A stretch of DNA of 64,000 nucleotides from Malacoraja senta (taxonomy: Eukaryota), in contig CM075988.1 of assembly GCA_038087875.1 (NCBI GenBank), positions 2,914,001 to 2,978,000 on the forward strand. Reading direction: 5' to 3'. Each line of letters starts with the position of its first letter. Position 1 is the stretch's first letter. A program made the translations under genes and the position numbers. This document shows positions 5,127-46,433 of this stretch, piece after piece. The notes beneath the pieces were generated by a model, which made no database searches, was not told the origin of the DNA, and saw only the letters and a list, made by a program, of their open reading frames with translations.

Positions 5127-5330
5127 TGTAGATGAGATATGCATGTGCCTTTAATATAGTTACCTCATCACTACTAGCCACTCCCCATATCACAAGTATA
5201 ATTACAACCTCCCCACCCACATATCGTTCTCTAGTTTCCGTGACAGACCACGTACAGCTAGTGCTCTCTGTAATGCTGCAGTATGAATAAAATAAGTCAA
5301 GTTACAGTGCGTCGATAACACTTCTTTACA
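5127..5330 (+). repeat. 5' LTR
   Basis: Direct repeat of 9294-9497 with 5 substitutions counted by eye. Confidence 0.97.
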
Positions 5331-5426
5331 TGGTGTCAGTCCTCTTACCCTTGCGCCTCCTGTTTATCGGTTGTTTATTTGATTTTACCCCAGTTTTCTG
5401 TTCCCCCCCCCTCTTATTTCCTCGCT

Positions 5427-6400
5427 ATGGCCACTTCTTGCCGCAAGCCCGATGTGCTAGTTTTCGATTCAGACATTGCCCATCGATGGGATGTCTTTAG
5501 ACGTGACGTCAACCACTATGTCACAATCGCTCATCCTGCCGCCACACCAGAAGTCAAAGCTTCTCTGCTTCTCAACCTGGCTGGTCCCGATGCCCTGGCT
5601 CGGTCAGACTTCTTCGTCTACGATGCGGGTGAATCTGCTCGGGACCCGGTATGTTTGTTGGCTAAGTTTACCGCTATTTGCGACATTCCCTCTAACTGCA
5701 TTTTAGAACGTTTTAAACTGTTCGGGCGGCGTCAGCACCCTGGTGAATCGGCCGAGAACTATGTCACTGCTCTGAGACACCTGGCCAGGTGGTGCCGCCT
5801 TGACATGCTGACCCCCGAGGAACTGACCAGGGACCTTCTGGTTTACGGTCTCCGCGATGAAAAGCTAAGGGCTGAACTTTTGCGCAGGCCCGACCTGCCT
5901 TTTAACGAGGCTATGCATGCCTGCCGTTTAGCCGAAGCTGTCACCTCGGCGGTGTCACCGGCTGATCATGACATTAACTTTGCCAGCGTTACCAGCCGTC
6001 GGCTGAACACGACCCCGCCATGACCCCAGCCACGACCCCCGGGGTCCGGCTTTGCTCCCGGGGGACGCGCCCAGCAGAGGTGCCCCAATTGTAACTTTGC
6101 TACTCATCTGTACAACGTATGCCCTGCTCTGGGTAAAACATGCAATTACTGCAAGAAACTGAACCACATTGCGGCTGCCTGCCGTTCCCGTGGGAAGCCT
6201 GTTGCTGCTCCAAGGCGTATGTTAAACAACTTGGTGCAAGCTGATAGCGAGCTCGGTTCCCAGTACCATTCCAACGAACTCCCTGTGTCTGACTCTGGGT
6301 CCTCACAGGGGGAAACCAGCATATTTTCTCTGTTGGATGCACCTGCTGTGATAACAGACCCTTCAGTTCGTGTAACTGTAAACAACTCGACCTGGGCAAG
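5427..6400 (+). pseudogene. gag: Gypsy gag with premature stop
   Basis: Gag-like ORF. After the in-frame TGA at 6021-6023 the same frame continues into two zinc knuckles (CPNC..H..C and CNYC..H..C). Confidence 0.85.
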
Positions 6401-6429
6401 CTGCCCTGCAACTACAAGATTGTAGTCGA

Positions 6430-9223
6430 CCGCAAGGTCGAGCCAGTGGTCCGTGTGCCACACCGTGTCTCCTTCGCCATGAAGGACAAAGTAGAATCGA
6501 CGCTGCACAGCATGGTGAAATTGGGCATCCTAAAGGCGGTCAGCATACCCACCAGGTGGGTCTCAACCATGGTGGTTGCCGTGAAAAAGGACAAAAGCAA
6601 AATACGCATTTGCATCAACCCCAAGGACCTCAACCTGGCCATCAAACGCCCGCACTACCCTATGAGAACAGTAGAGGACGTCGCTGCACAGGTTGGTCCG
6701 GCCACAATCTTTTCTGTCCTCGATGCCAAGAGCTCCTTCTGGCAGACACCGCTTGACGAGCAGTCCTCCATCCTGACGACTTTCAGCACCCCCTTCGGCA
6801 GATTTAGGTTCCTCTGAATGCCATTCGGAATCAACTCTGCCAGCGAGGTGTTCCAACGGACAATGGAGCAGCTGTTTGCTGGTCGACCCTGCGCCATCCT
6901 GGTTTACGGTAAAGATGTCGCCGAACACGACTTCCACCTCCGCCAAGTCCTAGACCGGGCCCGGAAGATCAATTTGAAACTGAACCCCAAGAAGTGCCGA
7001 TTCGGCGTCCCAGAGGTCACATATGTTGGACATGTATTCACAGCCTCGGGGCTGAAACCCGACCCGCAGAAAACGGCTGCCATCTCCGGATGTCTTCACC
7101 CACTGATGTGCCCAGCCTGCAACGTTTCCTAGGCATGATAAACTATCTGGGGAAGTTCATCCCCGACCTCAGCAAGCTCAGCGCACCCCTGAGGGAGTTG
7201 ATAAAGAAGGACACGGCCTGGGCTTGGTTCCCTCAACACCAGAAAGCCTTCGACATCCTTAAATCTAAGCTAATCAGTACCCCCACACTTAAATTTTTGA
7301 CCTGCAGCGTCCCATTATCCTCACCTGCGACGCCTCTAAGTTCGGGCTCGGTGCCGCTTGCCTACAGCTCCATGACGTCTGCAGCTGCCGGTTTCCTTTG
7401 CGTCCCGCACCATGACCCCTGCCGAACAGCACTACGCACAGATCGAGAAGGAGCTACTGGCCGTGGTGTTTGCCTGCTCCAAATTCAAGGACTACATTCT
7501 AGGCAACACTTTCACCATCGAAACTGATCACCAGCAGCTTGTCACCATTCTCAACAAATCGATCCATGTTGCCTCATCCCGACTGCAGCGCATGATGCTG
7601 CAGCTCCAGCGCTTCACTTTCGAAGTTGTTTATCGTAAGGGCAAAGACATGTTCGTGGCCGACACGCTGTCCCGTGCACCGCTAGCATCCACTGATCGCC
7701 ACCCCTATGAAATGTCTGACCTGATGGTGCTCAATGTGAATATTGTCCCTTCACAGCAGATGAAGTCCCTGGTCGAGCACACTGCCGATGATCCTGCCCT
7801 GCAACAGCTTTCTGCCATCATCCAGCAGGGCTGGCCCGACCGTCGTTCCGCTTTGCCGGCTGGCACCGTGCCCTACTTCCTGGTCCGTGATGAGCTCGTA
7901 CTTCATGACGGCGTGGTTGTGAAAGGTCACAAGGTTGTTGTGCCTGCTGCGCTGCTCGACCACTATTTTCAGGCCGCTCACCGCGGTCATCCTGGGGCCG
8001 AAGCCACCTTGTCTCACGCCCAGAGCCAGTTCTACTGGCCTGGTATGGCTCAATACATCCGGGAGAGGGTCTCCTCGTGTTCCACCTGCAACAGTCTCGC
8101 CCCCCACCAGCAACGTCAGCCGTTTCTGCAGCAGCCTGCCCCCGAACTGCCCTGGATGGCGGTTGCAACTGACATTTTCGATTGGCGGGGCAAACACTTC
8201 CTGGTCGTGGTCGACTCCTACTCCAGCTGGTTTGAGGTCGACCAGCTGCACTCCCTCACCTCTTCGGCCATTGTCGATAAGCGGCGCCGCCATTTCTGTA
8301 CCTTTGGCACCCCGGCCAGCCTGCAGTCGGACAACGGCAGCCAATTCACGAGCTCCGAGGTTAGGGCTTTCGCAACCCGCTGGAACTTCCGCCACTTCAC
8401 CAGCAGCCCTGAGTATCCGCAAAGCAACGGTCTGGCCGAGCGCGCCGTCCGCAGTGCAAAGAACTTGCTGGAACAATGTCACTTGTCTAACTCCGACTTT
8501 TTTCTGGCCCTCCTTAACCTTCGCAACATCTCCCGCGACCCTGTCATGGGCTCCCCTGCTCAGCGGCTCATGTCTCGCACGACCAGACCACCGATCCCGG
8601 TGGCCCAGCGCTCCCTCATCCCCTCTGTCCTCAAACCCGCTGCTGTCCAGGAATGCATTGCCTTTAAGCACGATGTTCAGAAGCGCTCCCATGACAAGTC
8701 CTGCCGCCCCCTGCCGCGCCTTTTCCCCGGTCAGGTCGTCCGCATGCAGACCCCCTCTGGTCATTCCCGGCTCGCTACCGTCGTCGCCTCTGCTGGGTCG
8801 CGCAGGTCCTATCTCGTCGACCATGCTGGAACGGTCTACCACCGGTCCCGCCAACACCTGCGGCTCGTCAATGTGCCACGGCCGCCGCCCGCGGACCCTT
8901 TTGCTCCCCCTCTGCAATTTCGGCACCCGGGCGGTGCTCTGCCCGCCACTCCTCGCATGCCACGGTCTCTACCCTCGCAGCTCTATCAGTCCAATCCTCC
9001 TCCGGCTCTCCCTCCCTCGCCTGCCCGCGCGCTGCCCGCTGCTGAACCCGCATCCCCTCCTGCCTTTCTGCCCTTGTCTTCTCCGTCCCCTCCCGGCTCC
9101 CCCATTCCAGTTCGGCCGTCCGCACCTGTTCCTCTTCTTCCTGCCGGGAGGGAGGATGGCGAGATGCGAACCCGGTCGGGAGGTGTTGTCAAGCCGCCTG
9201 TCCGCTATGGTGACTTTGCTTAA
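6430..9223 (+). pseudogene. pol: Gypsy pol (RT-RNase H-integrase) with stop and frameshifts; RNase H C-terminus and integrase open at 7412-9223
   Basis: Motifs IRICINPKDLN, LDAKSSFWQ, MPFG, YAQIEKELLA, integrase HHCC and D..SDNG..E. Confidence 0.93.
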
Positions 9224-9293
9224 CCATTTCTAGTGCATGAGACGTGGTCGCCCTGCCACTACCTTGTTTGCCTTTCGTTTCCAAGGGGAAGGA

Positions 9294-9497
9294 TGTAGAT
9301 GAGATATGCATGTGCCTTTAATATAGTTACCTCATCACTACTAACCACTCCCCATATCACAAGTATAATTACAACCTCCCCACCCACATATCGCTCTCTA
9401 GTTTCCGTGACAGACCACGTACAGCTAGTGCTCTCTGTAATGCTGCAGTATAAATAAAAGAAGTAAAGTTACAGTGCGTCGATAACACTTCTTTACA
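9294..9497 (+). repeat. 3' LTR
   Basis: Preceded by the PPT and followed by TSD GTTAC. Confidence 0.97.
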
Positions 9498-11900: not shown

Positions 11901-14347
11901 ACAGGGGATGTCAGGGTTGTCTTCTTACGGCAGAGGTACCGGATCAGGAAGGCCCCAGATCTAATAAAAGGAGGATCTATGTATGTTAATGGATGGTTTT
12001 TGTTTGTGAAATTAGTAATACTGTGATAATAATAATAATACCTCACACATCGCACTTTCTTTGAAATGGCATAATTTAAAAAGTGGTTAAATGCCTTTGT
12101 TTGCTTTATATGGCGTTTCATGACACATTTTGCAATTCAATGAAGTTCAATGCCTGTGTGTGTTTATTTATCTAATAAATCAAGGCTTTTATATGTGAGA
12201 TGCATTCCATTATTAGACTGGTTTCCATATGAGAGATCAATGCCATGATTAACAAACTGCTTTTTCCACTACACGAAAAGGTTACACTGAAGTTTAATAA
12301 TCAAGTTGTGGGTGAGGTTATTTGCGATAAATACAAAGACCCATGACGTTATAAGAATTAATTTGTTTATTAAGTGCAAACAAACAAATAACATATTGAC
12401 AAAACAAGAAACTAATTTTTAATGTGCAACACAAGTCAACAGAATATTGTTTATTTAGTGCAAGCAAACAAATGACGTAGTGAAAAACAACAGGGAATAA
12501 AACGTTAATGTGCAACACACAAGCAAACAGAATAGTGAATGTTGGAGAGAGCATCACTCTTTACGGCCCATGTACACTGGTTAATCCTCCATTTAATAGT
12601 CAGAGAGATCTGGGCCGGAGTTGCCGCTTGGGTCTGGACCCTCAAATTGCACAGGGAAATCTGTTGCTCCGAGCCTATCCATGCCGCGTGACGCATGATG
12701 TGGCGGTGAGCTGTCTACCCTGACATAGTGTGGGGGGGGGGGGGGCCTGCCATCCATGGGTATGCCATAGGCCGGGATTCCATCCTTGCCTGTGGGCAAA
12801 ACACATAAGTGTATCAATATGTATGGGAGCCAAACAAATCATATAAAACAAATCACAACCTTTCACAAGCTGTGTCAGAGACAATCTTGAGTCAGGCTGA
12901 AAACTCACAAAGGTTTCACAGTGTACCTGGGGAGAATATTGTGGTGGCATCATCCCCGTTTGTTGGTGTGGCATTATTGGCATGGGCCTCATCGGACTCT
13001 GCAACACCAAGGAAATCGTAGTGAATGATTCATAAACAGCATTAAAGTAAAACGTTTATAAATTCAATAAACTTTGATTAAAAGATTTTACTGGGAGAGG
13101 AAGTCTGTGCGCCCTTGCCAAGGCCAAGCCCTCTATGCAGAGGTGGTGCCATTGTGACTCAGGGATCTGTAACATCTCCTCCCTCAGTAGCGTTGAGTGC
13201 GCATAAACGATTCTTTCGTGCGACGTCCTTGGCTGCGACAATACATTTATAATATTTGCAGTGGTCTTAGCCTGTTGCATGATCTGCAACAAGAGAGTAC
13301 AATCCTGGTAAATATTTTTTGGGAGGCGATGGAGAAACGTGGACGTAGGGCGGAGTGAATGAGAAATTTGCTGAAGGTTCACCCGAAAGCACTTACATCT
13401 GTGAACATCTCCTGCTTAAGTGTTTCAACAGGCACATCGCAATCTGCCGCAGTTGTGCAGGCCCGCTTCCACATGGCGTGCTGCTGCTGTTTGACCGCAG
13501 TGCCGGACCCAGAGGGTCCATCTGAGGGTTCCTCTGGGGGTCCCTCTGGCGGATCAGGCTCACCCTCACTCGAGTCAGCGCACGATGATACCCCCACGGT
13601 AAGCTTGAAGAAAGTAAATGTGTATCATAAATGTGCAAGGCCATCAGGACATAGCAAGCAAAGTGACCACCAAGTTATCATTGTCAAATATCATTTTGAC
13701 TGACTTTCCAACAAATTTTAATTGTCGCATAATTTTCTTAACTATTCACCTTCCTGCCACTATCCTTCCTCTGCACTCGTACTATGTGGTTCCGCACGAA
13801 CCCCCATTTCTCCAATATCCACCGGTCTCTGTCAGTCATTGGCCTACTGGCGGAGCCAGACTTGTTAAGACTGCTCGACAGTTTCCCGAACCGTGTCCTC
13901 TGACTCTTGAGCCATTGACACAGTTGTTCATCTGTGAAAACATAGAATAAATGAAGATCAGTGTTGAGCAAATTATAATCTTAATTGGAACTGCAATTAC
14001 AACCACAGAAATATAGACAAACTACAAATTATGTACTTACAAGAGCAGTCAGGGAACTCCTTCGCCTTGTCTTCAAGAATGACGTTGCGGAGATCCTTGC
14101 TCCTGAATTCACGATGGCTCTTATCGTACAGTTCACGGTGGGCCTGATAACATTCCACCAGGTCTCCCTCTTGTTCCCTGGAAAAATTATAATGCCTTGT
14201 GCCCAACCTGTTCTTCGCCGGCGCAGATGGGGCATCAGTCTCCTGAGCCAAATCCGAGTCCCATGCAGGGACAGACGCTGGAGCAGGAGATGGGGCAGAT
14301 GGGGCAGCAGATGGGGCAGCAGATGGGGCAGCAGATGAGGCAGGAGA

Positions 14348-15620
14348 TGTAGAGCCATGCATGTTCCTTTAACATAATGACCTCACCACTACTAACCACT
14401 CCCCATTATCTTCAGTATAATTGTAACCTTCCCACCCCTAGCTCGCTCTCTAGCTCCGGTAACGGACCACGAACAGCTAGGGCAATATGTGTGTATACGA
14501 ATACAATGTATGCAATAAACTAAGAGTGATGACTATGTGTTTGACAAGTCTTTACATGGTGTCAGAAGTGGGATTCGAACCCACGCCTCCAGTTGGAGTT
14601 GCAGCATCATACGCTGCAAACGGGAAGAAGCCACGTGGATCGGTTTGTTCAAGATCGTGACCAGCGGCTGGTGGTCGGTTTCGATAGTGAAAGTGTTACC
14701 CAGAATGTAGTCCCTGAACTTCGAGCAGGCAAACACCACGGCAAGGAGCTCCTTCTCGATCTGAGCGTAGCGTTGCTCGGTAGGGGTCATAGTGCGGGAG
14801 GTGTAGGAGACAGGTAGTTGCAGGCGGTCGTAGATTTGCAGGCAGGCGGCACCGAGACCGAAACTTGAGGCATCGCAGGTAAGGACGATGGGGCGCTTTA
14901 ATTCGAAGAACTTGAGAGTGGGGGTGCGAACCAGCCGGGATTTTAAGTCATCGAAGGCTGCCTGATGCAGCGGGTACCAAACCCAGGCGGTGTCCTTCTT
15001 GGTCAGTTCCCTCAGGGGCGCACTCAGGTCGCTGAGGTCGGGAATGAATTTCCCCAGGTAGTTCACCATGCCCAAGAAGCGCTGCAGGCTGGGCACGTTG
15101 ACGGGAGCTGGCATCCCAGAGACCGCAGCTGTCTTCTGCTGGTCTAGTTTCAGACCCTCAGCCGTAAAAACATGGCCCACGTAGGTGACCTCCGGGACGC
15201 GGAAGCGGCACTTCTTGGGATTCAGTTTGAGGTTGATCTCCCGAGCCCGATCCAGGACTTGGCGGAGGTGGAGGTCGTGCTCAGCGACGTCCCTCCCGTA
15301 CACCAAGATGTCATCGACGATGATAGCACACGGCAGACCTGCAAATAGCTGCTCCATGGTGCGCTGGAAAACCTCGCTGGCAGAATTGATCCCGAAAGGC
15401 ATGCGGAGGAAACGGAACCTGCCGAAAGGTGTACCAAACGTGGTGACTACCACTACTAACCACTCCCCATTATCTTCAGTATAATTGTAACCTTCCCACC
15501 CCTAGCTCGCTCTCTAGCTCCGGTAACGGACCACGAACAGCTAGGGCAATATGTGTGTATACTAATACAATGTATGCAATAAACTAAGAGTGAAGACTAT
15601 GTGTTTGACAAGTCTTTACA
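14348..15620 (+). mobile_element. Rearranged Gypsy element: LTR, extended tRNA-Leu copy, inverted RT/RNase H, 5'-truncated LTR
   Basis: LTR 14348-14556 and partial LTR ~15449-15620. TSD GGAGA is confirmed by the empty site near 19571. The pol peptide is on the minus strand. Confidence 0.92.
14557..14598 (-). other. Reverse-transcribed 3' part of mature tRNA-Leu (extended PBS, includes CCA)
   Basis: Minus strand CTCCAACTGGAGGCGTGGGTTCGAATCCCACTTCTGACACCA shows variable arm, T-arm, acceptor stem and CCA. Confidence 0.88.
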
Positions 15621-16138
15621 GGAGATGGGGCAGGAACTGGGAATGGAACTGGTGAAGGTGCTGAGGCAGAAGATAGGGCAGGAGATGGGACAGGTACTGA
15701 AGCAGGGGCAGGAACAACAGCACGGACAGAAGCAGTGGCTGGACCCTCCAGTAGTTTAATGTTCTCTATAATTACTTTTTTTACTTTTTCCTGCATCGAT
15801 TTTTTCATCCTAGTTCTCCTCATGGTCCTGATATTATGTTTATGTCTCAAGATCTTGCGCGGTTTTAATGTGACCCGGTAAAAGGCGGGCCGACTGCGAA
15901 TGGACGTCGCGCAGCGTCGGGTGATGACGTCATCGCGCAACGCAACGCGCTAGGCCTACTCCGTCGAGACGGTGCGCGGCGTCGAGACACGGGATTTTTG
16001 AACAGTGTCAGTTTTACTGAGGTGTCGGGACCAACTCAATACGGCTCCGGCGATCTACGTGGGACCGACCCCACGCCGACCAGTGATCCCCGCACATTAA
16101 CACTATCCTACATCCACTAGGGACAATTTTTACATTTA

Positions 16139-16333
16139 AGGGCCTGTCCCACTTAGGCGACTCTTTAGGCGACCGCCAGGGACTAGTTTTAATGGAATTC
16201 ACCTACGACACCTGGCGACAACCTACGACAGCAAAAATTATCACCACTGTCGCCGAAAAAAGTTCAACATGTTGAAAATTTTGCGGCGGTTGCCTGTAGT
16301 CGCTCAAAAAATCGCCTAAGTGGGACAGGCCCT
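16139..16333. mobile_element. Harbinger-type MITE
   Basis: TIR AGGGCCTGTCCCACTTAGGCGA, TTA TSD, inserted in a SINE tail. Confidence 0.9.
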
Positions 16334-16675
16334 TTACCAAGACAATTAACCTACAAACACAGAATAAGAGTCACAGACGTTTTGATCCCAGAAGTTTGGG
16401 AAATGTTAATATTTTAGGGTACCTGAGTGTCCTTGTACACAGAGGACAGAAAGCCAACACACAGGGGCACCAGGAGATTACAGAAAGCAGGCGACAGTTA
16501 GCCGATACTGCAAGAGGATTTGATTACAGGGGTAAAGATGTCCATCAGCAGTTATTTGGGGCCTTGTTGACACTGCACCTGGAGCATTGGGTACAGTTTT
16601 GGTTTCCTTGTCTAAAATAGATTGTAATTGTTCCAGATGTGTGAATATTTACCCGGCAGTTGCTGAGATGCTGGG

Positions 16676-16975
16676 TTTAGTTTAGTTTAGTTTCGAGTTA
16701 CAGCGTGGAAACAGGCTCATTGGCCCACTGAGTCTGACTGACCAGCAATCCCTGTACACTCACACTAGGGACAATTTACAATCTTTATTGAAGCCAATTA
16801 ACCTGCAAACCTGCATGTCTTTGGAGTGTGGGAAGAAACCGCAGCACCCGGAGAAAACTCACGTGGTCACGGAGAGAATGTACAAACTCCATAGAGACAG
16901 CCCCTGTAGTCATGATCGAACCCGAGTCTCTAGCGCTGTAAGGCAGAAACTCTACCGCTGGGTCACCATGCCGCG
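16676..16975 (-). mobile_element. tRNA-derived SINE (V-SINE/HE1-like)
   Basis: A/B-box-like head (GGTTCGATC) and (CTAAA)n tail. Confidence 0.7.
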
Positions 16976-17146
16976 TCTTGAAATGTTCTTTTAAATCATA
17001 ATCTGCGTTGCAGTCATATTCATGCTGTTATAGGAGTCTGTTATATGAGAGAAGGTGTATAATTTAGAAAAATGGGAGGTCATCTCATTGATGTGTACAA
17101 AATACTTGGAGGGCTGGAGAGGTTCAATGGGGGAGGATGTTGGCCC

Positions 17147-17219
17147 GTGAACGCTAATGTCGCGCATGCGTGCTGGACGGGTTCTTCACGTAGTCACTCA
17201 CGTGACTCCGAAGTAAAAT
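17147..17219 (-). mobile_element. Isolated terminus of a DIRS element
   Basis: TTCTTCACGTAGTCACTCACGTGACTCCGAAGTAAAAT matches the DIRS end at 55183-55220. Confidence 0.8.
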
Positions 17220-17906
17220 GGATGGTTTTTGTTTGTGAAATTAGTAATACTGTGATAATAATGATAATACCTCACGCATCGCACTTTCTTTGAAATGGCA
17301 TAATTTTAAAAGCGGTTAAATGCCTTTGTCTAATTTATATGACGTTTCATGACACATTTTGCAATTCAATGAAGTTCAATGCCTGTGTGTTTTATTTATC
17401 TAATAAATCGAGGATTTTATATGTGAGATGCATTCCATTATTAGACTGGTTTCCATATGAGAGATCAATGCCATGATTAACAAACTGCTTTTTCCACTAC
17501 ACAAAAAGGTTACACTGAAGTTTAATAATCAAGTTGTGGGTGAGGTTATTTGCGATAAATACAAAGACCCATGACGTTATAAGAATTAATTTGTTTATTT
17601 AGTGCAAACAAACAAATAAATAACATATTGACAAAACAAGAAACTAATTTTTAATGTGCAACACAAGTCAACAGAATATTGTTTATTTAGTGCAAGCAAA
17701 CAAATGACGTAGTGAAAAACAACAGGGAATAAAACGTTAATGTGCAACACACAAGCAAACAGAATAGTGAATGTTGGAGAGAGCATCACTCTTTACGGCC
17801 CATGTACACTGGTTAATCCTCCATTTAATAGTCAGAGAGATCTGGGCCGGAGTTGCCGCTTGGGTCTGGACCCTCAAATTGCACAGGGAAATCTGTTGCT
17901 CCGAGC

Positions 17907-19890
17907 CTATTCATGCCGCGTGACGCATGATGTGGCGGTGAGCTGTCTACCCTGACATCGTGGGGGGGGGCCCTGCCATCCATGGGTATGCCATAGGCCG
18001 GGATTCCATCCTTGCCTGTGGGCAAAACACATAAGCGTATCAATATGTATGGGAGCCAAACAAATCATATAAAACAAATCACAACCTTTCACAAGCTGTG
18101 TGTCAGAGACAATCTTGAGTCAGGCTGAAAACTCACAAAGGTTTCACAGTGTACCTGGGGAGAATATTGTGGTGGCATCATCCCCGTTTGTTGGTGTGGC
18201 ATTATTGGCATGGGCCTCATCGGACTCTGCAACACCAAGGAAATCGTAGTGAATGATTCATAAACAGCATTAAAGTAAAACGTTTATAAATTCAATAAAC
18301 TTTGATTAAAAGATTTTACTGGGAGTGGAAGTCTGTGCGCCCTTGCCAAGGCCAAGCCCTCTATGCAGAGGTGGTGCCATTGTGACTCAGGGATCTGTAA
18401 CATCTCCTCCCTCAGTAGCGTTGAGTACGCATAAACGATTCTTTCGTGCGATGTCCTTGGCTGCGACAATACATTTATAATATTTGCAGTGGTCTTAGCC
18501 TGTTGCATGATCTGCAACAAGAGAGTACAATCCTGGTAAATATTTTTTGGGAGGCGATGGAGAAACGTGGACGTAGGGCGGTGCGAATGAGAAATTTGCT
18601 GAAGGTTCACCCGAAAGCACTTACATCTGTGAACATCTCCTGCTGAAGTGTTTCAACAGGCACATCGCAATCTGCCGCAGTTGTGCAGGCCCGCTTCCAC
18701 ATGGCGTGCTGCTGCTGTTTGACCGCAGTGCCGGACCCCGAGGGTCCATCTGAGGGTTCCTCTGGGGGTCCCTCTGGCGGATCAGGCTCGCCCTCACTCG
18801 AGTCAGCGCACGATGATACCCCCACGGTAAGCTTGAAGAAAGTAAATGTGTATCATAAATGTGCAAGGCCATCAGGACATAGCAAGCAAAGTGACCACCA
18901 AGTTATCATTGTCAAATATCATTTTGACTGACTTTCCAACAAATTTTAATTGTCACATAATTTTCTTAACTATTCACCTTCCTGCCACTATCCTTCCTCT
19001 GCACTCGTACTATGTGGTTCCGCACGAACCCCCATTTCTCCAATATCCACCGGTCTCTGTCAGTCATTGGCCTACTGGCGGAGCCAGACTTGCCAAGACT
19101 GCTCGACAGTTTCCCGAACCGTGTCCTCTGACTCTTGAGCCATTGACACAGTTGTTCATCTGTGAAAACATAGAATAAATGAAGATCAGTGTTGAGCAAA
19201 TTATAATCTTAATTGGAACTGCAATTACAACCACAGAAATATAGACAAACTACAAATTATGTACTTACAAGAGCAGTCAGGGAACTCCTTCGCCTTGTCT
19301 TCAAGAATGACGTTGCGGAGATCCTTGCTCCTGAAATCACGATGGCTCTTATCGTACAGTTCACGCTGGGCCTGATAACATTCCACCAGGTCTCCCTCTT
19401 GTTCCCTGGAAAAATTATAAGGCCTTGTGCCCAACCTGTTCTTCGCCGGCGCAGATGGGGCATCAGTCTCCTGAGCCAAATCCGAGTCCCATGCAGGGAC
19501 AGACGCTGGAGCAGGAGATGGGGCAGATGGGGCAGCAGAAGGGGCAGCAGATGGGGCAGCAGATGAGGCAGGAGATGGGGCAGGAACTGGGAATGGAACT
19601 GGTGAAGGTGCTGAGGCAGAAGATAGGGCAGGAGATGGGACAGGTACTGAAGCAGGGGCAGGAACAACAGCACGGACAGAAGCAGTGGCTGGACCCTCCA
19701 GTAGTTTAATGTTCTCTATAATTACTTTTTTTACTTTTTCCTGCATCGATTTTTTCATCCTAGTTCTCCTCATGGTCCTGATATTATGTTTATGTCTCAA
19801 GATCTCGCGCGGTTTTAATGTGACCCGGTAAAAGGCGGGCCGACTGCGAATGGACGTCGCGCGGCGTCGGGTGATGATGTCATCGCGCAA
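17907..19890 (-). CDS. Harbinger ORF2, spliced Myb/SANT/MADF-like DNA-binding protein, copy 2 (start and later exons tentative)
   Basis: FSREQEGDLVECYQ..ELYDKSH..F | YEQLCQWLKSQRTRFGKL joined in frame by a GT-AG intron (19268-19160). Further GT-AG bounded exons lie downstream. Confidence 0.65.
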
Positions 19891-20678
19891 CGCAACGCGC
19901 TAGGCCTACTCCGTCGAGACGGTGCGCGGCGTCGAGACACGGGATTTTTGAACAGTGTCAGTTTTACTGAGCACCGCGCGGTGTCGGGAACAACTCAATA
20001 CGGCTCCGGCGATCTACGTGGGACCGACCCCGCGACCACATGCGCGGTCCCCGCGCGGCCCCCGCTTCCTGTTAGGTCGCGCTTGCCGCATAGAATCGCC
20101 CGCCCGTGGGACAGGCCCTTAACTCTGTTCCTCTTTTCACAGATGCTGCCTGCTCTGCTGAAGGTTTCCTGCATGTTGTGTGTTCCTGTATATAGATGAG
20201 GATATGGATACTACAGCCATGATCTCCGCTGCTCCTTCCTGTCTGATGCTGATCATTTCAGGGGTTCTACCATGGAAATGTGAGAGCAATAGACAAAATA
20301 GACTTTTAGAACCCTCATACCTGTTTTGTCAAATGTTTGGTCTCTATCTTAACTCCATACATTTGATTCATAGAGTCATACAACACGATCTTGGGCCCAG
20401 CTCGTCCATGCCAACCAAGATGCACCATCCAAGCTAGTCCCATTTCGCCATGTTCAGCCCATATCCCTCTAAACCTTCCCTATCCAATTATCATAGTCAT
20501 ACAGAGTCGTTTGCTTTGGTCTCAATATCTTTGTCGAAAATAATTTAATCTTTGCGTTGAAATTTAAGAAAGGAATTGCAATTTCCCTCCAGCTTTTGTG
20601 TGAAGCAATGTTCCTGACAGCACTGGAACAGTGCAAAATGTTATGGTTATGTCCTGGCCTCTCTGATCTTATGTTCAC

Positions 20679-21080
20679 TTGGAATTTAGAAGGATGAGAG
20701 GAGATCTTGTAGAAACGTATACAATTCTTAAGGGATTGGGCAGGCTAGATGCAGGAAAAATGTTCCCGATGTTGGGGGAGTCCAGAACCAGGGGTTACAG
20801 TTTAAGAATAAGGGGTAGGCTATTAAGGACTGAGATGAGGAAAAACTATTTCACCCAATGAGTTGTGAATCTGTGGAATTCTCTGCCACAGAAGGCAGTG
20901 GAGGCCAATTCACTGGATGAATACAAGAGAGAGTTAGATATAACTATTAGGTCTAGTGGAATCAAGGAGAAAGGAGGATTGAGGTACTGATTTTGGATGA
21001 TCAGCCTTGAACATATTGAATGGCATTGCTGGCTCGAAGGGACGAATGGCCTACTCCTGCATCTATTTTCTATGTTTCTA
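20679..21080 (+). mobile_element. CR1 3' fragment
   Basis: EFRRMRGDLVETY..SRTRGYSL, with a TTTCTATG tail. Confidence 0.85.
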
Positions 21081-21171
21081 GCTCCCTCACAATACATGCC
21101 TATGAAGTGTCTCTATGGTCTGGAGCTCCCGCCCAATGCCACAATACAGAGACCACAGTTGGGGGAGGAGA

Positions 21172-21270
21172 TTCTGAAGAAGGGTCCCCACCTGAAACAT
21201 CACCTATCCATGTTCTCCAGAGATGCTGCCTGTCCCGCTGAGATACTCCAGCATCTTGTGTCTATCTTGG
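21172..21270 (+). repeat. Hammerhead-headed short repeat (degenerate copy)
   Basis: CTGAAGAAGGGTCCCCACCTGAAACATC followed by the shared body. Confidence 0.55.
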
Positions 21271-21641
21271 GAGAGGAGAGGTTTGATATAAATGTTCCTC
21301 AGATTTCACGTTGGTGAATGCTGCATTTCCTACCACCTGTCCAGGTGTTTGCTGGTGACAGGAAACTGAGAGGGAATGTGATGAGGATGAGGATTCAAAG
21401 AGATGTCACAGTCTGTGGACATGTTGAGTGAGTTGGCAATGATTTGGTAGATGGTTTACAACGTGGAAGAGGTGAGGTTATCAACATAGGTGGAGAAGCA
21501 GGAGTGCTGAATATATATATATATTTTATAGTTTAGAGATACAGCGCGGAAACAGGCCCTACGGCCCACCAGGTCCACGCCGACCAGTGACCCCGCACAT
21601 TAACACTATCCTACACCCACTAGGGACAATTTTTACATTTA

Positions 21642-21816
21642 AGGGCCTGTCCCACTTAGGCGACTCTTTAGGCGACCGCCAGGGACTAGTTTTAATGGAA
21701 TTCACCTACGACAGCAATAATTATCGCCACTGTCGCCGAAAAATGTTCAACATGTTGAAAATTTTGCGGCAGTTGCCTGTAGTCGCTCAAAAAATCGCCT
21801 AAGTGGGACAGGCCCA
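21642..21816. mobile_element. Harbinger-type MITE (duplicate of 16139-16333)
   Basis: Same TIRs, TTA TSD and flanks. Confidence 0.9.
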
Positions 21817-22156
21817 TTACCAAGCCAATTAACCTACAAACACAGAATAAGAGTCACAGAAGTTTTGATCCCAGAAGTTTGGGAAATGTTAATATTTTAG
21901 GGTACCTGAGTGTCCTTGTACACAGAGGACAGAAAGCCAACACACAGGGGCACCAGGAGATTACAGAAAGCAGGCGACAGTTAGCCGATACTGCAAAAGG
22001 ATTTGATTACAGGGGTAAAGATGTCCATCAGCAGTTATTTGGGGCCTTGTTGACACTGCACCTGGAGCATTGGGTGCAGTTTTGGTTTCCTTGTCTAAAA
22101 TAGATTGTAATTGTTCCAGATGTGTGAATATTCACCCGGCAGTTGCTGAGATGCTG

Positions 22157-22458
22157 GGTTTAGTTTAGTTTAGTTTAGATTTACAGTGTGGAAACAGGCT
22201 CATTGGCCCACTGAGTCTGACTGACCAGCAATCCCTGTACACTCACACTAGGGACAATTTACAATCTTTATTGAAGCCAATTCACCTACAAACCTGCATG
22301 TCTTTGGAGTGTGGGAAGAAACCGCAGCACCCGGAGAAAACTCACGTGGTCACGGAGAGAATGTACAAACTCCATAGAGACAGCCCCTGTAGTCATGATC
22401 GAACCCGGGTCTCTAGCACTGTAAGGCAGAAACTCTACCGCTGGGTCACCATGCCGCC
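22157..22458 (-). mobile_element. tRNA-derived SINE (duplicate of 16676-16975)
   Basis: Sequence matches the first copy. Confidence 0.7.
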
Positions 22459-22834
22459 TCTTGAAATGTTCTTTTAAATCATAACCTGCTTTGCAGTCAT
22501 ATTCATGCTGTTATAGGAGTCTGTTATATGAGAGAAGGTGTATAGTTTAGAAAAATGGGAGGTCATCTCATTGATGTGTACAAAATACTTGGAGGGCTGG
22601 AGAGGTTCAATGGGGGAGGATGTTGGCCCTGGTAAAGGAGTCAAGAACTAGGGAGCAGAAACAAGGGGCAGGCTGGGAAACACTGAGATGAGGAGAAAAT
22701 TCCTTAACCAGATGGTGGTGACATTTTGGAATTCGCTATCCCGGAATGTACAAGGATACTCAGGTACCCTAAAATATCAACATTTCCCAGTCGTCTGTCA
22801 TTAAAGAATATTCAGCCTTTCATGATGAAAGGAG

Positions 22835-29895: not shown

Positions 29896-32800
29896 TGTTG
29901 ATTTAGAGTCCTCATAATAATAATGTCCTCACACCATGTCAGGTTATACACAGTTTATTAGAAATAAGCAACCACAACTTCTCACTTGAGAGTTCACTTT
30001 TAGACTAACGGAGGGCAGTAGACCGCAACGCTAACAAGCTAGAGGGGGCGTAACTACAAATTCATGACTCATAGCATGAGCCACTAATCTACATCCCCCC
30101 TCTTAAAGAATCAATAACGCTGTATACCCACAACTAAGCAAAGCAAATATCGCAACCGATGACCAATGTATATAAAGTCAAACATAGTCCGGATACTTCA
30201 CAACCGGCCAGCAAACACGACCGGCATGTGTACGATAGAGGCTCCATTCCCCATTCTTTTTCTCCTGCATCACTTATCTCCTTTAATGGTTCAGCACTAC
30301 ACCCTATCGGCCAACTAAAGTTACGTTGCCGTCTCAACGCGCGTGACCACATCCTGGATTTCTACGTGGTACGCAAGAAGGTACCATCCATACTGGGTTC
30401 CGATGCATGCCATGACATGGGTTTGATTTCCTTCAGCCCTTCAGTCTGTCCATTGACTATAGGCTGTGATTTTACACATCACATTTTAACACAATACAAG
30501 GATTTGTTTAACGACGAGCTGGGCAGGTTGCCTGTGAGATACACGATTACTATTGACCTTGAGGCAATCCCAGTTGTTCGTGCAGCTCACAGGATTCCCC
30601 ATGCCATGCGGGATCACGTACAAAGTGAACTTAACAGAATGGTGGCTCTTGGTGTGATTACTCCCGTAACTGAACATTCAGACTGGGTCTCCTCAATGGT
30701 TGTTACTACTAAGAAGAATAAAGATGAGATACGGATTTGTATTAACCCCAAGGACTTAAATACTGCAATTAAGAGACCACGTTATCCAATGCGTTCAGTG
30801 GACGAGATTGCGGCGCAGATGGCCGATGCAACTGTATTCACAGTGCTAGATGCCAAGAGTTCATTCTGGCAGATTCCACTGGAACATAAATCCTCCAAGC
30901 TGACAACTTTCAGTACACCGTTCGGACGATATACATTTTTGAGAATGCCCTTTGGTATAAGTCCTGCCAGTGAAGTGTTTCAACAATCCATGGAGCAATT
31001 GTTTTCCGGATACCCTTGCTCCATCGTAGTTGACGATATCCTCATTGCTGGGAAAACGATCGAGGAACACGACGCCAATCTGACAAAAGTATTGAAGCGT
31101 GCTGAGGCCATCCATCTAAAACTCAATCCCCAAAAATGCAGATTCAGAGTGAATGAGATAAAATACCTAGGCCATATATTTACCAAGGATGGCCTGAAAA
31201 CCGATCCAGTGAAAACCAGTGCCATTAATGAAATTCCAGCACCCACGGATGTGCCCAGCTTGCAGAGGTTCCTTGGCATTGCGAACTATTTGAGCAAATT
31301 CATTCCAGATTTCAGTGAAACGTCAGCCCCATTACACCATCTCACACACAAAGACACTGCTTGGACCTGGCATGAACAACAACAGACAGCATTTGACACT
31401 CTGAAACGGCAGATGTCGCCCACCCTTACTCTAGCATACTTTGATCATAGACTGCCTATTACACTTACATGTGACGCCTCACAACATGGCCTGGGTGTGG
31501 CATGCCTTCAAAATGATGGTCATGGCCATAAGCCTGTCGCCTATGCCTCGCGCACCTTGTCTGACACAGAACAACGATACGCCCAAGTCGAAAAGGAGTT
31601 GCTAGCGGTTGTTTTCGCCTGCAAAAAGTTCAACGATTTCATCTTTGGTCGCACTGTTACAATTGAAACCGACCACCAACCTCTTATCAGCATTTTCAGT
31701 AAACCTATTCATAACTCTCCTGCGCGCCTTCAACGGATGTTACTGCAACTTCAAAAATATGACATAGTCCTCACCTACAAACCTGGCAGACACTCTTTCA
31801 CGTGCACCTCGGAAGACCTGCGAGAATCTGCCCTCACAGGATGATGACTTTTTCGTGATGTCCGTATCCTTCATCCCTTCATCATGGATGGAGGACCTGG
31901 TTGCCCACACTGCCGCCGACAAGATCCTACAGTCGCTAACTTCTATCATTAAGCGGGGCTGGCCAGACAAGCACTACAAGCCACTTCCATTGCCAGTCCG
32001 ACCTTTCTTCCCTGTTCGGGACGAATTAGTGCTACAAGACAGAATTGTTTTAAAAGGACACAAGGCCGTGGTTCCTGTTTCGCTGCGTCACCGGTATTTT
32101 GACACTGTCCATGCAGGACACCCATGTGCTGAAGCCACTGTTTCACAGGCAAAAAGCATGTTTTACTGGCATGGCATAGCTGAATACATCAATAAAAATG
32201 TGGCAGCTTGTGCTGTGTGCGATAGCCTGGCACCTCATCAACAAAAGCAACCACTTCTGCCACATCCTGTACCTGCGCTCCCATGGCACGGCAAGCAGTA
32301 CCTGGTGCTCGTGGATTCATATTCAGGGTGGTTCGACATTGATTTTCTCAGCAGCCCCACTTCCAGCGGCGTGATTTCAAAATTATCTCATCATTTTTCA
32401 ATCCATGGATCTCCAGGCAAGCTGTTGACTGACAATGGCAGCCAGTTCACCAGCCAACAATTCAGAGAGTTTGCCAGACGCCGGAATTTTCACCACATCA
32501 CCAGCAGCCCTGAGTATCCACAGGCTAGCTGAACGGGCTGTCAGAAGTGCAAAACAAATCATGGAGCACTCTCACAGGGCCAAATCTGATGTATTCCTGG
32601 ATTTGCTCAACTTACGTAACATTTCCCGTGACCCTGCCTTGGGTTCACCTGCTCAACGATTATTGTCAAGGCAGACCCGTACCCCATTGCCCGTCGCAGA
32701 ACAAACTTTAATCCCACTTCTGACACCATGTTGATTTAGAATCCTCATAATAATAATGTCTTCACACCATGTCAGGTTATACACAGTTTATTAGGAATAA

Positions 32801-32924
32801 GCAACTACAAGTTCTCACTTGAGAGTTCACTTTTAGACTAACGGAGTGCAGTAGGCCGCGACGCTAACGACCTAGTGGGCGTAACTACAAATGCATAACT
32901 CATAGCATGAGCCACTAATCTACA
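29896..32924 (-). mobile_element. Gypsy element with minus-strand LTRs, PBS and PPT but plus-strand (inverted) pol; gag absent
   Basis: LTRs 29896-30093 and 32729-32924. PBS TGGTGTCAGAAGTGGGAT on minus (32711-32728), PPT on minus (30094-30102). GTGAT on both flanks, with a 2-nt offset on the left. Confidence 0.92.
30245..32715 (+). pseudogene. pol: Gypsy pol segment (protease C-terminus, RT, RNase H, integrase core), frameshifted
   Basis: SILG, IRICINPKDLN, RMPFG, VVDD, CDAS, EKELLA and TDNG motifs. Confidence 0.92.
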
Positions 32925-38791: not shown

Positions 38792-41700
38792 CTGCGGAGA
38801 GAGAAGGCGTGATTGTAAAGGTGAAAATTGGGAGTAGGGAGTATTAGAGAGTATAGGCAGCTGCAGAAACAAGAAGGCTCTATTGTTAGATAAGAATGTA
38901 TCAGAATGTCTAACCACAGAGAAACAATTTCTTATCAGTGTTTCTCTAGCATAGTGAAGGTCGGTCTGTGAAGCCTGCTTGTCTACTAAATTTATTACCG
39001 TTAATAATCGACAAAAAGCGGTGGCGGCAGAGGGAGGAAGAGGGGAATGAGGAAGGAAGGAGGTGGACAGACATGGATAAAGGAAGACACAGAGGGAGAG
39101 AGAGGGAGGGAGAGGGGGAGACTGCGGCACCGGCTACGCGAGCCCAAGGCTTCGTGCCTACTTCGGAACTCCAGGCCTTTGAGCTGAGAAGGGGTACAGA
39201 CGCCATGCCATCAAAAAAAAATCCCGCATCTGCTGAGGAGGTTGACGATATCAAGAAATCGCTCGACATGCTGACGGAGGAGGTTTCTGTTGTTAGACAA
39301 CAGCAGGAAACCATCATGAGAATGGTGGAAGAAGTTAAAGCCCTGAGGCTACAAAACTCCGAGAAGGACAAGCGGATTATGTTGCTGGAGAACCAGGTGG
39401 CTGATCACCAGAATGAACGATATAATTGTCACTGGTCTGGAGACAAAACCCTGCTCATATGCACGGGCGGTGACAATGCTGAACGGAGAGGAGACGAGCG
39501 AGCATGACGCTCCATCTGTGGAGCAACAGGTGACGGCGTTCCTCCACTCAAAAGGGATTGAGTTGGACCGGGACAACATCGAGGCTTGTCACCCGCTCTC
39601 ACGGAGATGCAAGACGGATAAACCAGCCATAATAATTCAGTTTGCTAACAGGAAAAATAAAACTGAACTGCTGAAACAGGGAAGACGGCTAAAGGGCTTG
39701 GATGTGTATTTGAATGAACACCTGACAACGAAAAATGCTGACATTGCCAGAAAGGCCCGACTCCTGAGAAAGAAGAAGAAAATTCAATCTACATGGACTG
39801 CAAACTGCAAAATATTCATCAAGCTGAACAGAACACCAGCACAAGCCAAAGTATTAGTCATTAGGGACCTGGATGAACTGGATAAATACCAATGAGACAA
39901 ACCATAACAAGGTAATGGAATACACTTAGTAGCAAATAAAGAATATATAAAATAAAAACCACAACCATGATAATTCCTGACCAAAAATATACATCTCTAT
40001 CAGGACTAGAAACCTTTGCATATACAGAGCAGAACACACAGGACATAGAAAATGATATTGATCCGGAAGATAACTTACTTAACAATATCAACAACAGCTG
40101 CAGTTAATACACAGATGAGCAATTCAATATAACTTTCCAATCAGAACATAACATATCAATTATCCACTTTAATAGCCGAAGTCTATATGCCAACTTCCGC
40201 AACATAAAAGAATATTTAAGACAGTTCAAGAACCCATTTAGCATTACAGCAATATCAGAGACATGGATCAGCATTGCGAAAGGTGTGGACTTTGACATGG
40301 ATGGCTAAGAACTGAATTATATAAACAGAAGGAAAAAAAGTGGAGGAGGTGTGGCGATCTATGTGGATAAAAGATGGTGGAGAACATGACAACAGCCGTT
40401 GATGATTTGTTGGAATGTATTACAGTAGAAATTTGTATGGAAAAGACCAAAAATGTTATTGTGAGCTGTATATACAGAACTCCCGGATCGAGTATTGAAA
40501 TATTTAAAGATGTTTACAAAATCATTACAAAGGATTGTGATCATCTGTGGGGATTACAATATTGACCTGTTGAATCCACAAAAGCACAAAATGACAGAAG
40601 AATTCATCAATACTATGCACAGTATGGGTTTATATCCTAAAATAACCAGACCTAGTAGAATTACTTCTCATTGTGCCATATCCAATAGACAACATATTCA
40701 CAAACATTATGGAAAACAATACAGTAAGCGGACTATTATATAGTGACATCAGTGACCATTTACCTGTTTTTATTGTTTATCACTGTAGTTATAGGAAACC
40801 TAAAAACACAAGTCATTTCAAATACAAAAGGGTGAGAACCGAAGAAAACATAAATGCATTTAAGAATGAATTACTGAAATAGAATTGGAGGGTAGTATAT
40901 GAGGGTAAAGATATCGACAAAGCATACAATGGATTTCTAAATATTTTTAAATCACTTTATGACAAAAACTGTCCTGTGAAACAATATAGAGATAGACAAA
41001 AACAAACAAATAGTCCATGGATCACTAAGGGTTTAAAAAATGCCTGCAAAAAGAAAAACACACTATATAGACAATTCATAAAATATCGAACTTCAGAAGC
41101 AGAAAATAAATATAAAAAATATAAGAATGTAAAAAAATATTAAGAAAGAAATTAGAAAAGCTAAAAGAAGATATGAGGTTGCTTTGGCAAGTAAGGTGAA
41201 AGTAAATCCAAAGGGTTTCTACAGCTATATTAATAGCAAAAGGATAACAAGGAATAAAATCGGTCCATTAGAGAGTCAGAGTGGACAGCTATCTGCAGAG
41301 CCAAAAGAGATGGGGGAGATATTGAACAATTTCTTTTCTTCGGTATTCACGAAGGAGAAGGATATGGAATTATGTGAGGTAAGGGAAACGAGCAGAGTAG
41401 CAATGGAAACTGTGAGATTCAAAGAAGAGGAGGTGCGGACACTTTTGAAAAATATGAAAACGGATAAGTCTCCAGGTCCTGGCAGGATATTCCCTAGGAC
41501 ATTGAGGGAAGTTAGTGTAGAAATAGCAGGGGCTATGACAGAAATATTTCAAATGTCATTAGAAACGGGAATAGTGCCGGAGGATTGGCGTACTGCGCAT
41601 GTTGTTCCGTTGTTTAAAAAGGGTTCGAAGAGTAAACCTAGCAATTATAGACCTGTTAGTTTGATGTCAGTGGTGGGAAAATTAATGGAAAGGATACTTA

Positions 41701-42641
41701 AAGATAATATATATAAGCATCTGGATAAGCAGGGTCTGATTAGGAACAGTCAACATGGATTTGTGCTTGGAAGGTCATGCTTGACTAATCTACTTGAATT
41801 TTTCGAAGAGGTTACTAGGGAAATTGATGAGGGTAAAGCAGTGGATGTTGTCTATATGGACTTCAGTAAGGCCTTTGACAAGGTTCCTCATGGAAGGTTG
41901 GTTAAGAAGATTCAATTGTTGGGTATTAATGGTGGAGTAGCAAGATGGATTCAACAGTGGCTGAATGGGAGATGCCAGAGAGTAATGGTGGATGGCTGTT
42001 TGTCAGGTTGGAGGCCGGTGACTAGTGGGGTGCCTCAGGGGTCTGTGTTGGGTCCACTGTTGTTTGTCATGTACATCAATAATCTGGATGAAGGTGTGGA
42101 AAATTGGATTAGTAAGTATGCAGATGATACTAAGATAGGTGGTGTTGTGGATAATGAAGTAGATTTTCAAAGTCTACAGAGAGATTTAGGCCATTTGGAA
42201 GAGTGGGCTGAAAGATGGCAGATGGAGTTTTTTTATTTTTTTATTTTTATTTTTATTTATTAGAAGTACATTACATTACAACCACATACATTAATACTCG
42301 TCATTTATATCTTCTTACAATTAATGTACTCCCTTTATTTATTTTTTTTACACTAGAAAAAGAAAAGATTGAAAGAAAGAAGAAAGTGAAGGAAAAAGTG
42401 TAAGTGTAGAAAAGTGTAGAAAATGTAACAACAAAAAAGGACGAAGACCCTATAAGAGCGAAATTAAAAACAAAAAGAAAAAGAGTTAAGAAATAGGCCC
42501 TAAGAAAAGAAAAGAGAAAGAGAAAAAAAGAGAAACAAATGTTTTTTTTGAGCATCACGTAAATAGGACATACCAACTCTTCAACTATCATCCCCCCTTA
42601 CCTGACCTCAATTTTTTATTTTTTTAAAGTACTTTTGCACC

Positions 42642-45600: not shown

Positions 45601-46433
45601 ATTTGTTCTTTTAAATATATACTCGCTTGTGGATCTTTTAAAATTTGAGAGTTAAATCTCCAGAATGATTTATTCTTAGACAATCCTTCCAGTTTTAAAA
45701 AGAAAGTTAGTGGAGAATGGTCTGAAATTGAATTTGTATGGTATATTGCATTAGATGTTTGGGGGATTAATTTTGTATCCAGCAGAAAGTAGTCTATACA
45801 TGAGTATGTCTTATGTACCATTGAGTAAAACGAATATTCCCTGCCAGTTGGATTCACAATTCTCCAAACATCTGCTATATTAGTGTTATTTATATAGGTA
45901 TTGAGGAGTTCCCCAGTTTTCGATTTCATATTCCCTCTCTGTTTTTGACTTGATTTATCTAAGTACGGATCTAAAACACAGTTAAAGTCTCCGCCTATTA
46001 TAACATTTTGATAGTTTGACTCTGCAATTATATTGAAGATTTTATTGAAAAAGTGGGGGTTATCAAAGTTAGGGGCATATATATTTACCAAAGTAAGTGG
46101 AGTGTCATGGATTTCTCCATTAACTATTAGGTATCTCCCTTCTATATCTGTTATAATATTCTTTGCTTTAAATGGTATACCTTTTCTTATGATAATTGAC
46201 ATGCCTCTAGATTTTGAAGTAAATGAAGAGTGGTATGTTTGACCTATCCATTTCGCCCTCAGCCTAACTTGATCCTGAGGTTTTAGGTGTGTTTCTTGTA
46301 GGAAGGTAATGTCAGAATTGTACATTTTTAGCTGAGCTAATATCTTACCCCTTTTGATAGGTTCGTTAATACCTCTTATATTCCAACTACAAAATGAGAT
46401 TCCTCCTAGGTTCTTTTGTGTGGTGTCATGCAT
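42642..46433 (-). CDS. L1 ORF2p (AP endonuclease, RT, C-terminal zinc knuckle), 1263 aa
   Basis: SWNIRG, LQETH, GGDFN, SDH, PGPDG, RQGCSLSP, LYADD and CDKC..H..C motifs with no stops. Confidence 0.97.
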   Translation of the reverse strand: MHDTTQKNLGGISFCSWNIRGINEPIKRGKILAQLKMYNSDITFLQETHLKPQDQVRLRAKWIGQTYHSSFTSKSRGMSIIIRKGIPFKAKNIITDIEGRYLIVNGEIHDTPLTLVNIYAPNFDNPHFFNKIFNIIAESNYQNVIIGGDFNCVLDPYLDKSSQKQRGNMKSKTGELLNTYINNTNIADVWRIVNPTGREYSFYSMVHKTYSCIDYFLLDTKLIPQTSNAIYHTNSISDHSPLTFFLKLEGLSKNKSFWRFNSQILKDPQASIYLKEQMEVFFQTNDTSDISPTLLWESFKAYIRGIIISYQAFQNKKNKNEQRQLEELIRQMDIDNAKDPSIDKHNKIIILKFKLNKLLSAKLIRLFQITKQEHFEFGDKPHKLLARQLKKREKEHTIPKIKSDKGELLTTPKDINKRFAQFYENLYTSKTIIDSNNITKFLDTCNLPKLELKEQEELGAQISIKELEDTINSLKNGKTPGPDGFTNEFYKSFYDKIIPRLQKMYQYAFKKRILPDTLAESTITLIPKKNKDLEEPGSYRAIALLNTDQKILAKTLARRLSKYISKLINPDQTGFIPKRYSSNNMRRLLNIMHSHKSEDQELSIISLDAEKAFDQVEWNYMDKVLQKFQLGENFILWIKLLYNKPTARILTNNILSSKFQLSRGNRQGCSLSPQLFALIIEPLAEKIRIHPDIHGYNTKDSYNKISLYADDILLYITKPQITIPNILNLIEDFGSFSGYRINWNKSEIMSIKPKDSTHLLKFPFKIATEKFKYLGIEITRTYQGMFRANFDPLLNKLNTLIKFWKTLPMSLIGRINAIKMIFLPQILYLFQSIPIYLPKKFFKKLDSDITNFIWDYKSHRIQKTHLNKPKVLGGLALPNFMYYYWSVNIKNMIQLMDNSAQQVDWIVMEKEDCSSRNIGAILLSPMKLNNINYNKNPIIHSTIRIWKQIKQNLKLRNLSLLLPIVNNPSFSPSIIDKAYTQWDRLGIKTLGDLYETGKLLAFQQLQIKYKLGNNQYFKYFQICDYLKKYTKDHYNNPVDVLDEAMQIKAESANLISYLYNIILNVQIPPTEGIRRDWEQELAIKISKESWNEYLLNVHKCSINVRHTLIQFKILHRLYYSKTKIHKIFPNVSSTCDKCQSQEATIAHSFVFCTKIQKFWNEIFEIFTKLFKTRLIPKAEWIIFGITEDDPELNVFQKKLMDYGLITGKKLILKFWKKAPIPTINMWISNMFETLHLEEIRLLLAGKPDHFHLTWSAFIELLQT

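Follow-up and report, generated by a model that had tools for sequence, protein, structure and literature searches.

What becomes of a reverse transcript that runs beyond its primer site and into the primer tRNA itself? The role of m1A58 as a stop for plus-strand synthesis in vivo, and the fate of products that overrun it, have been argued mainly from HIV-1, in vitro and in mutant cells (PMC8599865). The question is raised again by a locus in a 64,000-nt stretch of the Malacoraja senta genome (CM075988.1:2,914,001-2,978,000; hereafter the window), where a long terminal repeat (LTR) is followed by 42 nt resembling the complement of a tRNA-Leu, and then by a piece of pol. The initial annotation of the window read this arrangement as the relic of a reverse transcriptase (RT) that had bypassed m1A58, or had copied a hypomodified tRNA, stalled in the variable-arm hairpin and then jumped into pol. 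Here, we compare the locus with its sister copies, with host tRNA-Leu genes and with similar copies across the genome, and weigh the routes by which it could have arisen.

Results

Structure of the insertion

The insertion (14348-15620 of the window; 1,273 bp) consists, in order, of a full 209-bp LTR, 42 nt of tRNA complement, ∼850 nt of inverted pol and a 5′-truncated LTR (Table 1). One target duplication brackets the whole, and a neighbouring duplicate of the host region has a clean empty site. Direct LTRs with TG...CA ends and a 5-bp duplication are those of a Ty3/Gypsy element, and pol of a sister copy (L127) encodes RT (RVT_1, 511-666), RNase H (730-860) and integrase (969-1128) in this order, which is the Ty3/Gypsy order. 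The insertion is one defective Ty3/Gypsy copy, whose two LTRs show 2 differences in 172 nt. It has neither the polypurine tract nor the complete 3′ LTR of a mobile element: its 3′ LTR is 37 nt short, and 8 of the 14 nt preceding that LTR are purines (11 of 14 in a sister). Because it lacks a polypurine tract, it is predicted to be immobile.

Table 1. Features of the insertion and of its empty site, in window coordinates.
Feature	Position	Strand	Remarks
Left copy of 5-bp target-site duplication	14343..14347	+	Single copy at empty site of duplicated region
Full 5′ LTR, 209 bp, TG...CA	14348..14556	+	97.6-100% identity to 40 listed genome matches
18-nt complement of mature tRNA-Leu positions 76-59, with CCA	14557..14574	+	Sisters: only ∼8 matching nt
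Unambiguous read-through: complement of A58 (correct base), T-arm, start of variable arm	14575..14591	+	
Junction A: 7 nt common to tRNA variable arm and pol sense strand	14592..14598	+	
Inverted pol fragment, RT to RNase H	14599..15446	-	96.4-98.2% identity to sisters
Junction B: inverted pol meets LTR nt 38	15444..15453	.	Short microhomology, possible 5-bp hairpin
3′ LTR without first 37 nt and without polypurine tract	15449..15620	+	
Right copy of target-site duplication	15621..15625	+	
Empty site in neighbouring duplicate of host region, outside element	19571..19575	+	

The locus and both of its junctions are known from assembly sequence; contigs listed from four public runs covered pol and the LTR as repeats, none of them bridging junction B, and are evidence neither way. 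The host region forms a tandem duplication of ∼5.2 kb (11988-22629; 96-98% identity), with 1.5 kb of additional sequence in the second copy, where the element is missing; either the region is truly duplicated or two haplotypes have been placed one after the other. Elsewhere, the window contains a 25-bp satellite array (∼56200-64000) with a higher-order spacing of ∼996 bp and an inverted block at ∼63450-64000, as well as an AT-rich stretch with open frames of 1266 codons (42642-46442, minus strand) and 376 codons (41133-42263, plus strand).

The template was a mature tRNA-Leu

The 42-nt stretch, which starts directly after the CA end of the LTR, matches each of three host tRNA-Leu(CAA) genes (L134, L135 and L136) at 38 of 39 gene-encoded positions, two tRNA-Leu(CAG) genes at 35 of 39, and a diverged gene (L138) at 34 of 39. 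None of the three tRNA-Leu(CAA) genes, which include introns of 31 nt (L134) and 30 nt (L135), is followed by a genomic CCA. Since the complement of CCA is present in the insertion, the template was a mature tRNA. Chance is excluded, because the first 35 nt of the copy have 173 exact matches in the 1.94-Gb genome and the reversed control has none. The annotation of these nucleotides as a tRNA-Leu complement was therefore correct, and a match to host tRNA-Leu(CAA) extending far beyond 18 nt supports its proposal that RT had read through into the primer.

The extent of the copy needs revision. Its length of 42 nt is a maximum, of which 35 nt are certain because the last 7 nt also fit pol, and it ends just before position 44, covering most, but not all, of the variable arm region that it had been thought to span. 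A stall in the variable-arm hairpin is plausible, although unproven because of the same 7 ambiguous nucleotides. The base opposite A58 is correct, so that bypass of the methylated base and use of an unmethylated primer are indistinguishable for this copy, in which the modification signature described below is not visible.

Three pattern searches of the assembly found no host gene matching at all 39 positions. The variable loop of the insertion recurs in 8 of 39 sampled copies that reach nt 42, while the commonest loop among these (14 of 39) corresponds to none of the tRNA genes found by the searches; the assembly probably lacks some tRNA-Leu(CAA) genes. In a search of 14300-15700, Rfam gave only a weak tRNA T-arm match, below threshold. 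ARAGORN, whose intron mode gave spurious calls and misnamed intron-bearing genes, called no tRNA gene in the window or in loci L001-L030.

Sister copies carry a short native primer site

Among the best 30 of 40 listed LTR matches, 16 are 5′ LTRs; one of these is the present locus, two are followed by a perfect 18-nt copy and 13 by a short native primer site. With only this short site in 13 of 16, the tRNA stretch is not a family trait, in keeping with its original description as the fossil of a read-through.

In seven unrearranged leaders, the match to the tRNA extends over no more than 8-11 nt. A second leader box, 10-40 nt after the LTR, is predicted to pair with tRNA positions 44-58 (T-arm). 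The observed pairing energy was reached by 0 (L058), 13 (L027), 14 (L239), 26 (L143), 26 (L285) and 144 (L191) of 1000 shuffles, and by 5 for a leader in the window (5331-5370), that is, by at most 26 per 1000 in six of seven leaders, which belong to related families and in which the box had been noticed before being tested. The second box could be either part of a bipartite primer site or an old, fixed read-through.

The window also contains a third Gypsy element, in normal orientation (5127-9497), with a 9-nt native primer site, LTRs that are 97.5% alike and a pol split into several frames.

A genome-wide class of tRNA-tailed copies

In all 30 of the 173 exact 35-nt matches that were examined, the tRNA copy directly follows an LTR end, and many different LTR sequences are involved. 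The exact 18-nt site after an LTR end has 959 matches (with a pattern allowing three of the four last bases); the first 100 comprise 64 that stop at 18 nt and 36 that continue for 27-60 nt. A pattern for read-through as far as nt 29 or beyond, limited to a purine as last base, has 248 matches; extrapolated, both counts suggest ∼450-500 read-through copies in the genome, duplicates and haplotigs included. Each sample took the first 100 entries of its list, almost all of which lie on contigs C1 and C2 of one genome, and end positions 35-39 are blurred, the variable loop having been left free in scoring. The insertion is one case of a class of hundreds, in many LTR families, whose tails span 18 to 87 nt.

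The longest tail is found in L139 (contig C4936), where an LTR is followed by the complete complement of a spliced tRNA-Leu(CAA) with CCA (87 nt), and then by integrase-like sequence. This copy is correct at A58, G37 and G26, suggesting that its primer was likely unmodified and that such events are likely a route to tRNA retrocopies.

The window itself contains another member of this class: in a Gypsy copy of a different family (29896-32924, LTRs on the minus strand), 19 nt copied from tRNA-Leu precede ∼2.4 kb of inverted pol and a second full LTR (92% alike). At another locus (L279; contig C1:149424500-149426600), two primer-site copies lie face to face on opposite strands, ∼60 nt apart.

Errors and end points coincide with probable modified positions

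The first 100 of the 248 read-through matches were scored for mismatches, positions 13-19 having been left free in the pattern. Nucleotides 13-18 show 0, 2, 3, 2, 0 and 1 mismatches, respectively, compared with 40 at nt 19, opposite A58, a base present in all six aligned tRNA-Leu genes. The wrong bases are A (23), C (11) and G (6), a three-base spectrum that points to misincorporation. Errors at A58 persist when copies with shared junctions are collapsed (37/90), and age does not explain them, because the rate holds in copies with no other change (24/62).

Copies end or are misread at two further positions as well. Position 38 is reached by 27 non-gene loci (27 of 38 non-gene matches were examined for this end point), 24 of which end there, at G37, and three of which cross the spliced anticodon junction; among seven copies that pass G37, five have a wrong base opposite it. 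At G26, where the signal comes from about five copies, L098 and L108 end at or beside the base and L112 and L064 misread it. Judged by their positions, these errors and end points likely mark m1A58, m1G37 and m2,2G26. Speaking against modification as the sole cause, ends also occur at a steady rate across nt 30-48, away from modified bases as well as at them, and about half of these fall in the region of the variable arm.

Human tRNA-Leu isodecoders have high mutation values at m1A58, m1G37 and m2,2G26 (PMC5066629), and the same three modifications are reported in zebrafish (PMC11417395); by analogy, we infer that they are present in this species. The bypass of m1A58 and the use of hypomodified tRNA, which the initial annotation had offered as alternatives, both have counterparts in the genome, in the 40 of 100 copies misread at A58 and in the error-free whole tRNA of L139.

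Junctions and the sequence beyond the tail

Comparison with eight sisters places the pol piece of the insertion, which encodes RT and RNase H, on the strand opposite to the LTR and primer site in every case, and its identity to the sisters (Table 1) extends over the full length in 7 of the 8. Junction A falls at the end of RNase H, in the LQLQ region, whose codons belong to the minus strand. In all five sisters with a matching anchor (eight examined), the final 7 nt of the tRNA copy are identical to the adjoining 7 nt of pol. Allowing up to 2 mismatches, the assembly contains junction B a single time. The tail did reach the LQLQ codons of pol, as had been proposed, but through 7 shared nucleotides, not 6, and on the opposite strand; a single RT jump also leaves out the inversion of pol, the second jump into the LTR and the class of hundreds.

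Across the class, 65 of 100 read-through copies resume inside gag-pol in the sense orientation, 17 are inverted and 18 have no protein match; among 64 copies that stop at 18 nt, 30 are inverted, 29 are sense and five lack a protein match. Orientation was called by the first protein match and can err: L143, L144 and L191 share a junction and were called differently. Only ∼10 of the unselected 100 18-nt sites resume near the start of gag, so that perfect 18-nt primer sites may mark rearranged copies, a caution for annotation.

Junction microhomology, scored where a donor was found (71 of 181), reaches at least 3 nt in 26/47 read-through and 16/24 18-nt junctions, as against ∼2% in shifted controls, and is absent from 12/47 and 3/24, respectively. 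A full 3′ LTR occurs together with a target duplication at 27 of 70 long loci, and a truncated LTR with a duplication at five; 13 have an LTR with no duplication found, and 25 have no second LTR within 5.1 kb.

Some inversion junctions recur, using the same pol or gag sites at unrelated places (L074, L250, L269-L271, L281 and L282; L089, L246, L277 and L278; L140, L141, L151, L204 and L222). They represent either hot spots of tail annealing or small mobile subfamilies.

Origin of the tailed copies

We consider it highly probable that plus-strand strong-stop DNA carrying a tRNA tail was rescued by microhomology jumps and then integrated, and that the class shares this process. The primer appears to pair natively through only ∼8-11 nt of its acceptor end, together with the predicted pairing of the second box to the T-arm; with so short a pairing, even a normal 18-nt copy would leave an unpaired tail with no partner on the minus strand. 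At this locus, the enzyme would have continued for 35-42 nt into the tRNA, the tail would have annealed to the sense strand of pol and been copied backwards for 0.85 kb, a second switch at LTR nt 38 would have supplied the right end, and integrase would have inserted the rescued product. Annealing of a tail on the minus strand would generate a deletion and annealing on the sense strand an inversion, the latter route restoring an LTR end only through another switch, as in this insertion. In a mirror route, the growing minus strand would capture the tailed DNA and yield the same product, the strand extended at each switch not being readable from sequence. The same process probably left several hundred copies in many LTR families. 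Several observations count against this explanation: the lack of a 39/39 host gene in the assembly, the correct A58 base at this locus, the 12 of 47 read-through junctions without microhomology and, among the 70 long loci, the 25 that lack a 3′ LTR within 5.1 kb and the 13 that lack a target duplication.

An origin in two rounds, in which the tail stems from an earlier cycle and a tailed parent with both LTRs and a polypurine tract was retranscribed, with inversion and LTR truncation following later, would agree with the 27 of 70 tailed copies that keep a full 3′ LTR, most of them with a purine-rich tract, and the recurrence of some junctions at unrelated sites (clusters of 5 and 7) could reflect re-mobilisation. 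We nevertheless regard it as improbable: the 7-nt microhomology sits exactly at the tRNA end, junction B is unique, and the loci sampled did not include a parent of the insertion. The members of a recurring cluster, 71-99% alike, mostly diverge once 91-825 nt have passed, in line with hot spots that were used independently. That the locus is an assembly chimera among near-identical repeats is very unlikely, given its exact target duplication, the clean empty site in the duplicate, junctions that join sequences with only short homology, and a class with hundreds of different junctions and a position-specific error pattern; these outweigh the reliance on assembly sequence and a tandem duplication at 96-98% identity, which can mark a mis-joined haplotype. 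Least credible, and largely refuted, is a DNA-level origin, in which recombination or repair acting on the integrated element would have attached a genomic tRNA gene, a tRNA pseudogene or part of a SINE. The window is indeed rich in repeats, and DNA repair too can produce joins with microhomology. Against this origin, only mature tRNA possesses CCA and a spliced anticodon junction, all 30 copies examined begin exactly where an LTR ends, errors cluster at A58, and one target duplication spans the entire unit.

Discussion

As a single locus, the insertion is a dead copy of modest interest. If tailed strong-stop DNA was rescued and integrated as proposed, a broader reading offers itself, in which the insertions of Gypsy families with short primer sites form a germline archive of tRNA sequence and chemistry that can be dated, rescued tailed strong-stop DNA has been a major source of defective copies, and errors and stops report m1A58, m1G37 and m2,2G26 as well as the isodecoders used at the time of insertion; we judge the case for and against this reading to be evenly balanced. 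If it is true, primer methylation would become a testable lever on retrotransposition in the animal germline. The genome holds hundreds of integrated natural outcomes, which lend themselves to counting, to dating through LTR divergence and to sorting by family, and the tailed copies behave like a fossil tRNA-sequencing experiment in germ cells.

Overrun of the primer tRNA has precedents, including older single cases in murine and avian retroviruses. Within the literature searched, which left most subscription journals outside, we found neither a genome-wide germline class of such copies in LTR retrotransposons nor a reading of tRNA modifications from them.

Among the most similar known systems are Helenus/Cassandra-type TRIMs, likewise non-autonomous LTR elements holding small-RNA (tRNA or 5S) sequence; their tRNA-like part lies inside the LTRs, is a presumed promoter and is inherited by the family (PMC10886601). 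At the present locus, in contrast, the tRNA sequence is not found in both LTRs or family-wide: it follows the 5′ LTR, is antisense, includes CCA, differs from copy to copy and is absent from sisters.

Ty1 and Ty3 share with the present families a short primer site that is not inherited from the tRNA, additional T-arm pairing, which is predicted here, and tailed strong-stop DNA as a by-product (PMC5371799). For yeast, that review describes the tailed DNA (12 nt) as a dead end within particles. In the present genome, DNA with tails of 18 to 87 nt appears to have been rescued and to have reached integration, so that these copies test the idea of tRNA-tailed strong-stop DNA as a dead end. In HIV-1, loss or bypass of m1A58 leads to read-through of the tRNA into products unable to pair with the minus strand, which are expected not to integrate and which show a second stop at position 54 (Fukuda et al. 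2021, PMC8599865). The overrun products described here were integrated, and no ends at nt 19-26 were called in the unselected 100, weak short extensions being binned with the 18-nt class.

The same event is described for HIV-1 proviruses attributed to delayed second-strand transfer (Hardy et al. 2025, PMC12657518), which likewise have an LTR and primer site followed by further tRNA complement. In 44 such defective proviruses, the junction of a deletion contains 7-54 nt of primer tRNA; five are changed opposite A58, which the authors read as mutation, and the word inversion is absent from the main text. Our insertion shares with these proviruses a primer complement with CCA that runs past nt 18 directly after the 5′ LTR. 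Its orientation differs, this copy being inverted, whereas 65 of 100 other read-through copies resume in sense. In contrast to those proviruses, the present copies belong to Ty3/Gypsy elements, lie in the germline, derive from tRNA-Leu and number hundreds of fixed copies in many families, with A58 misread in 40%, a further stop at G37 and inversion as a frequent outcome. The event itself is known from HIV-1; notable here are its scale, its fixation in the germline and the position-specific marks of modification.
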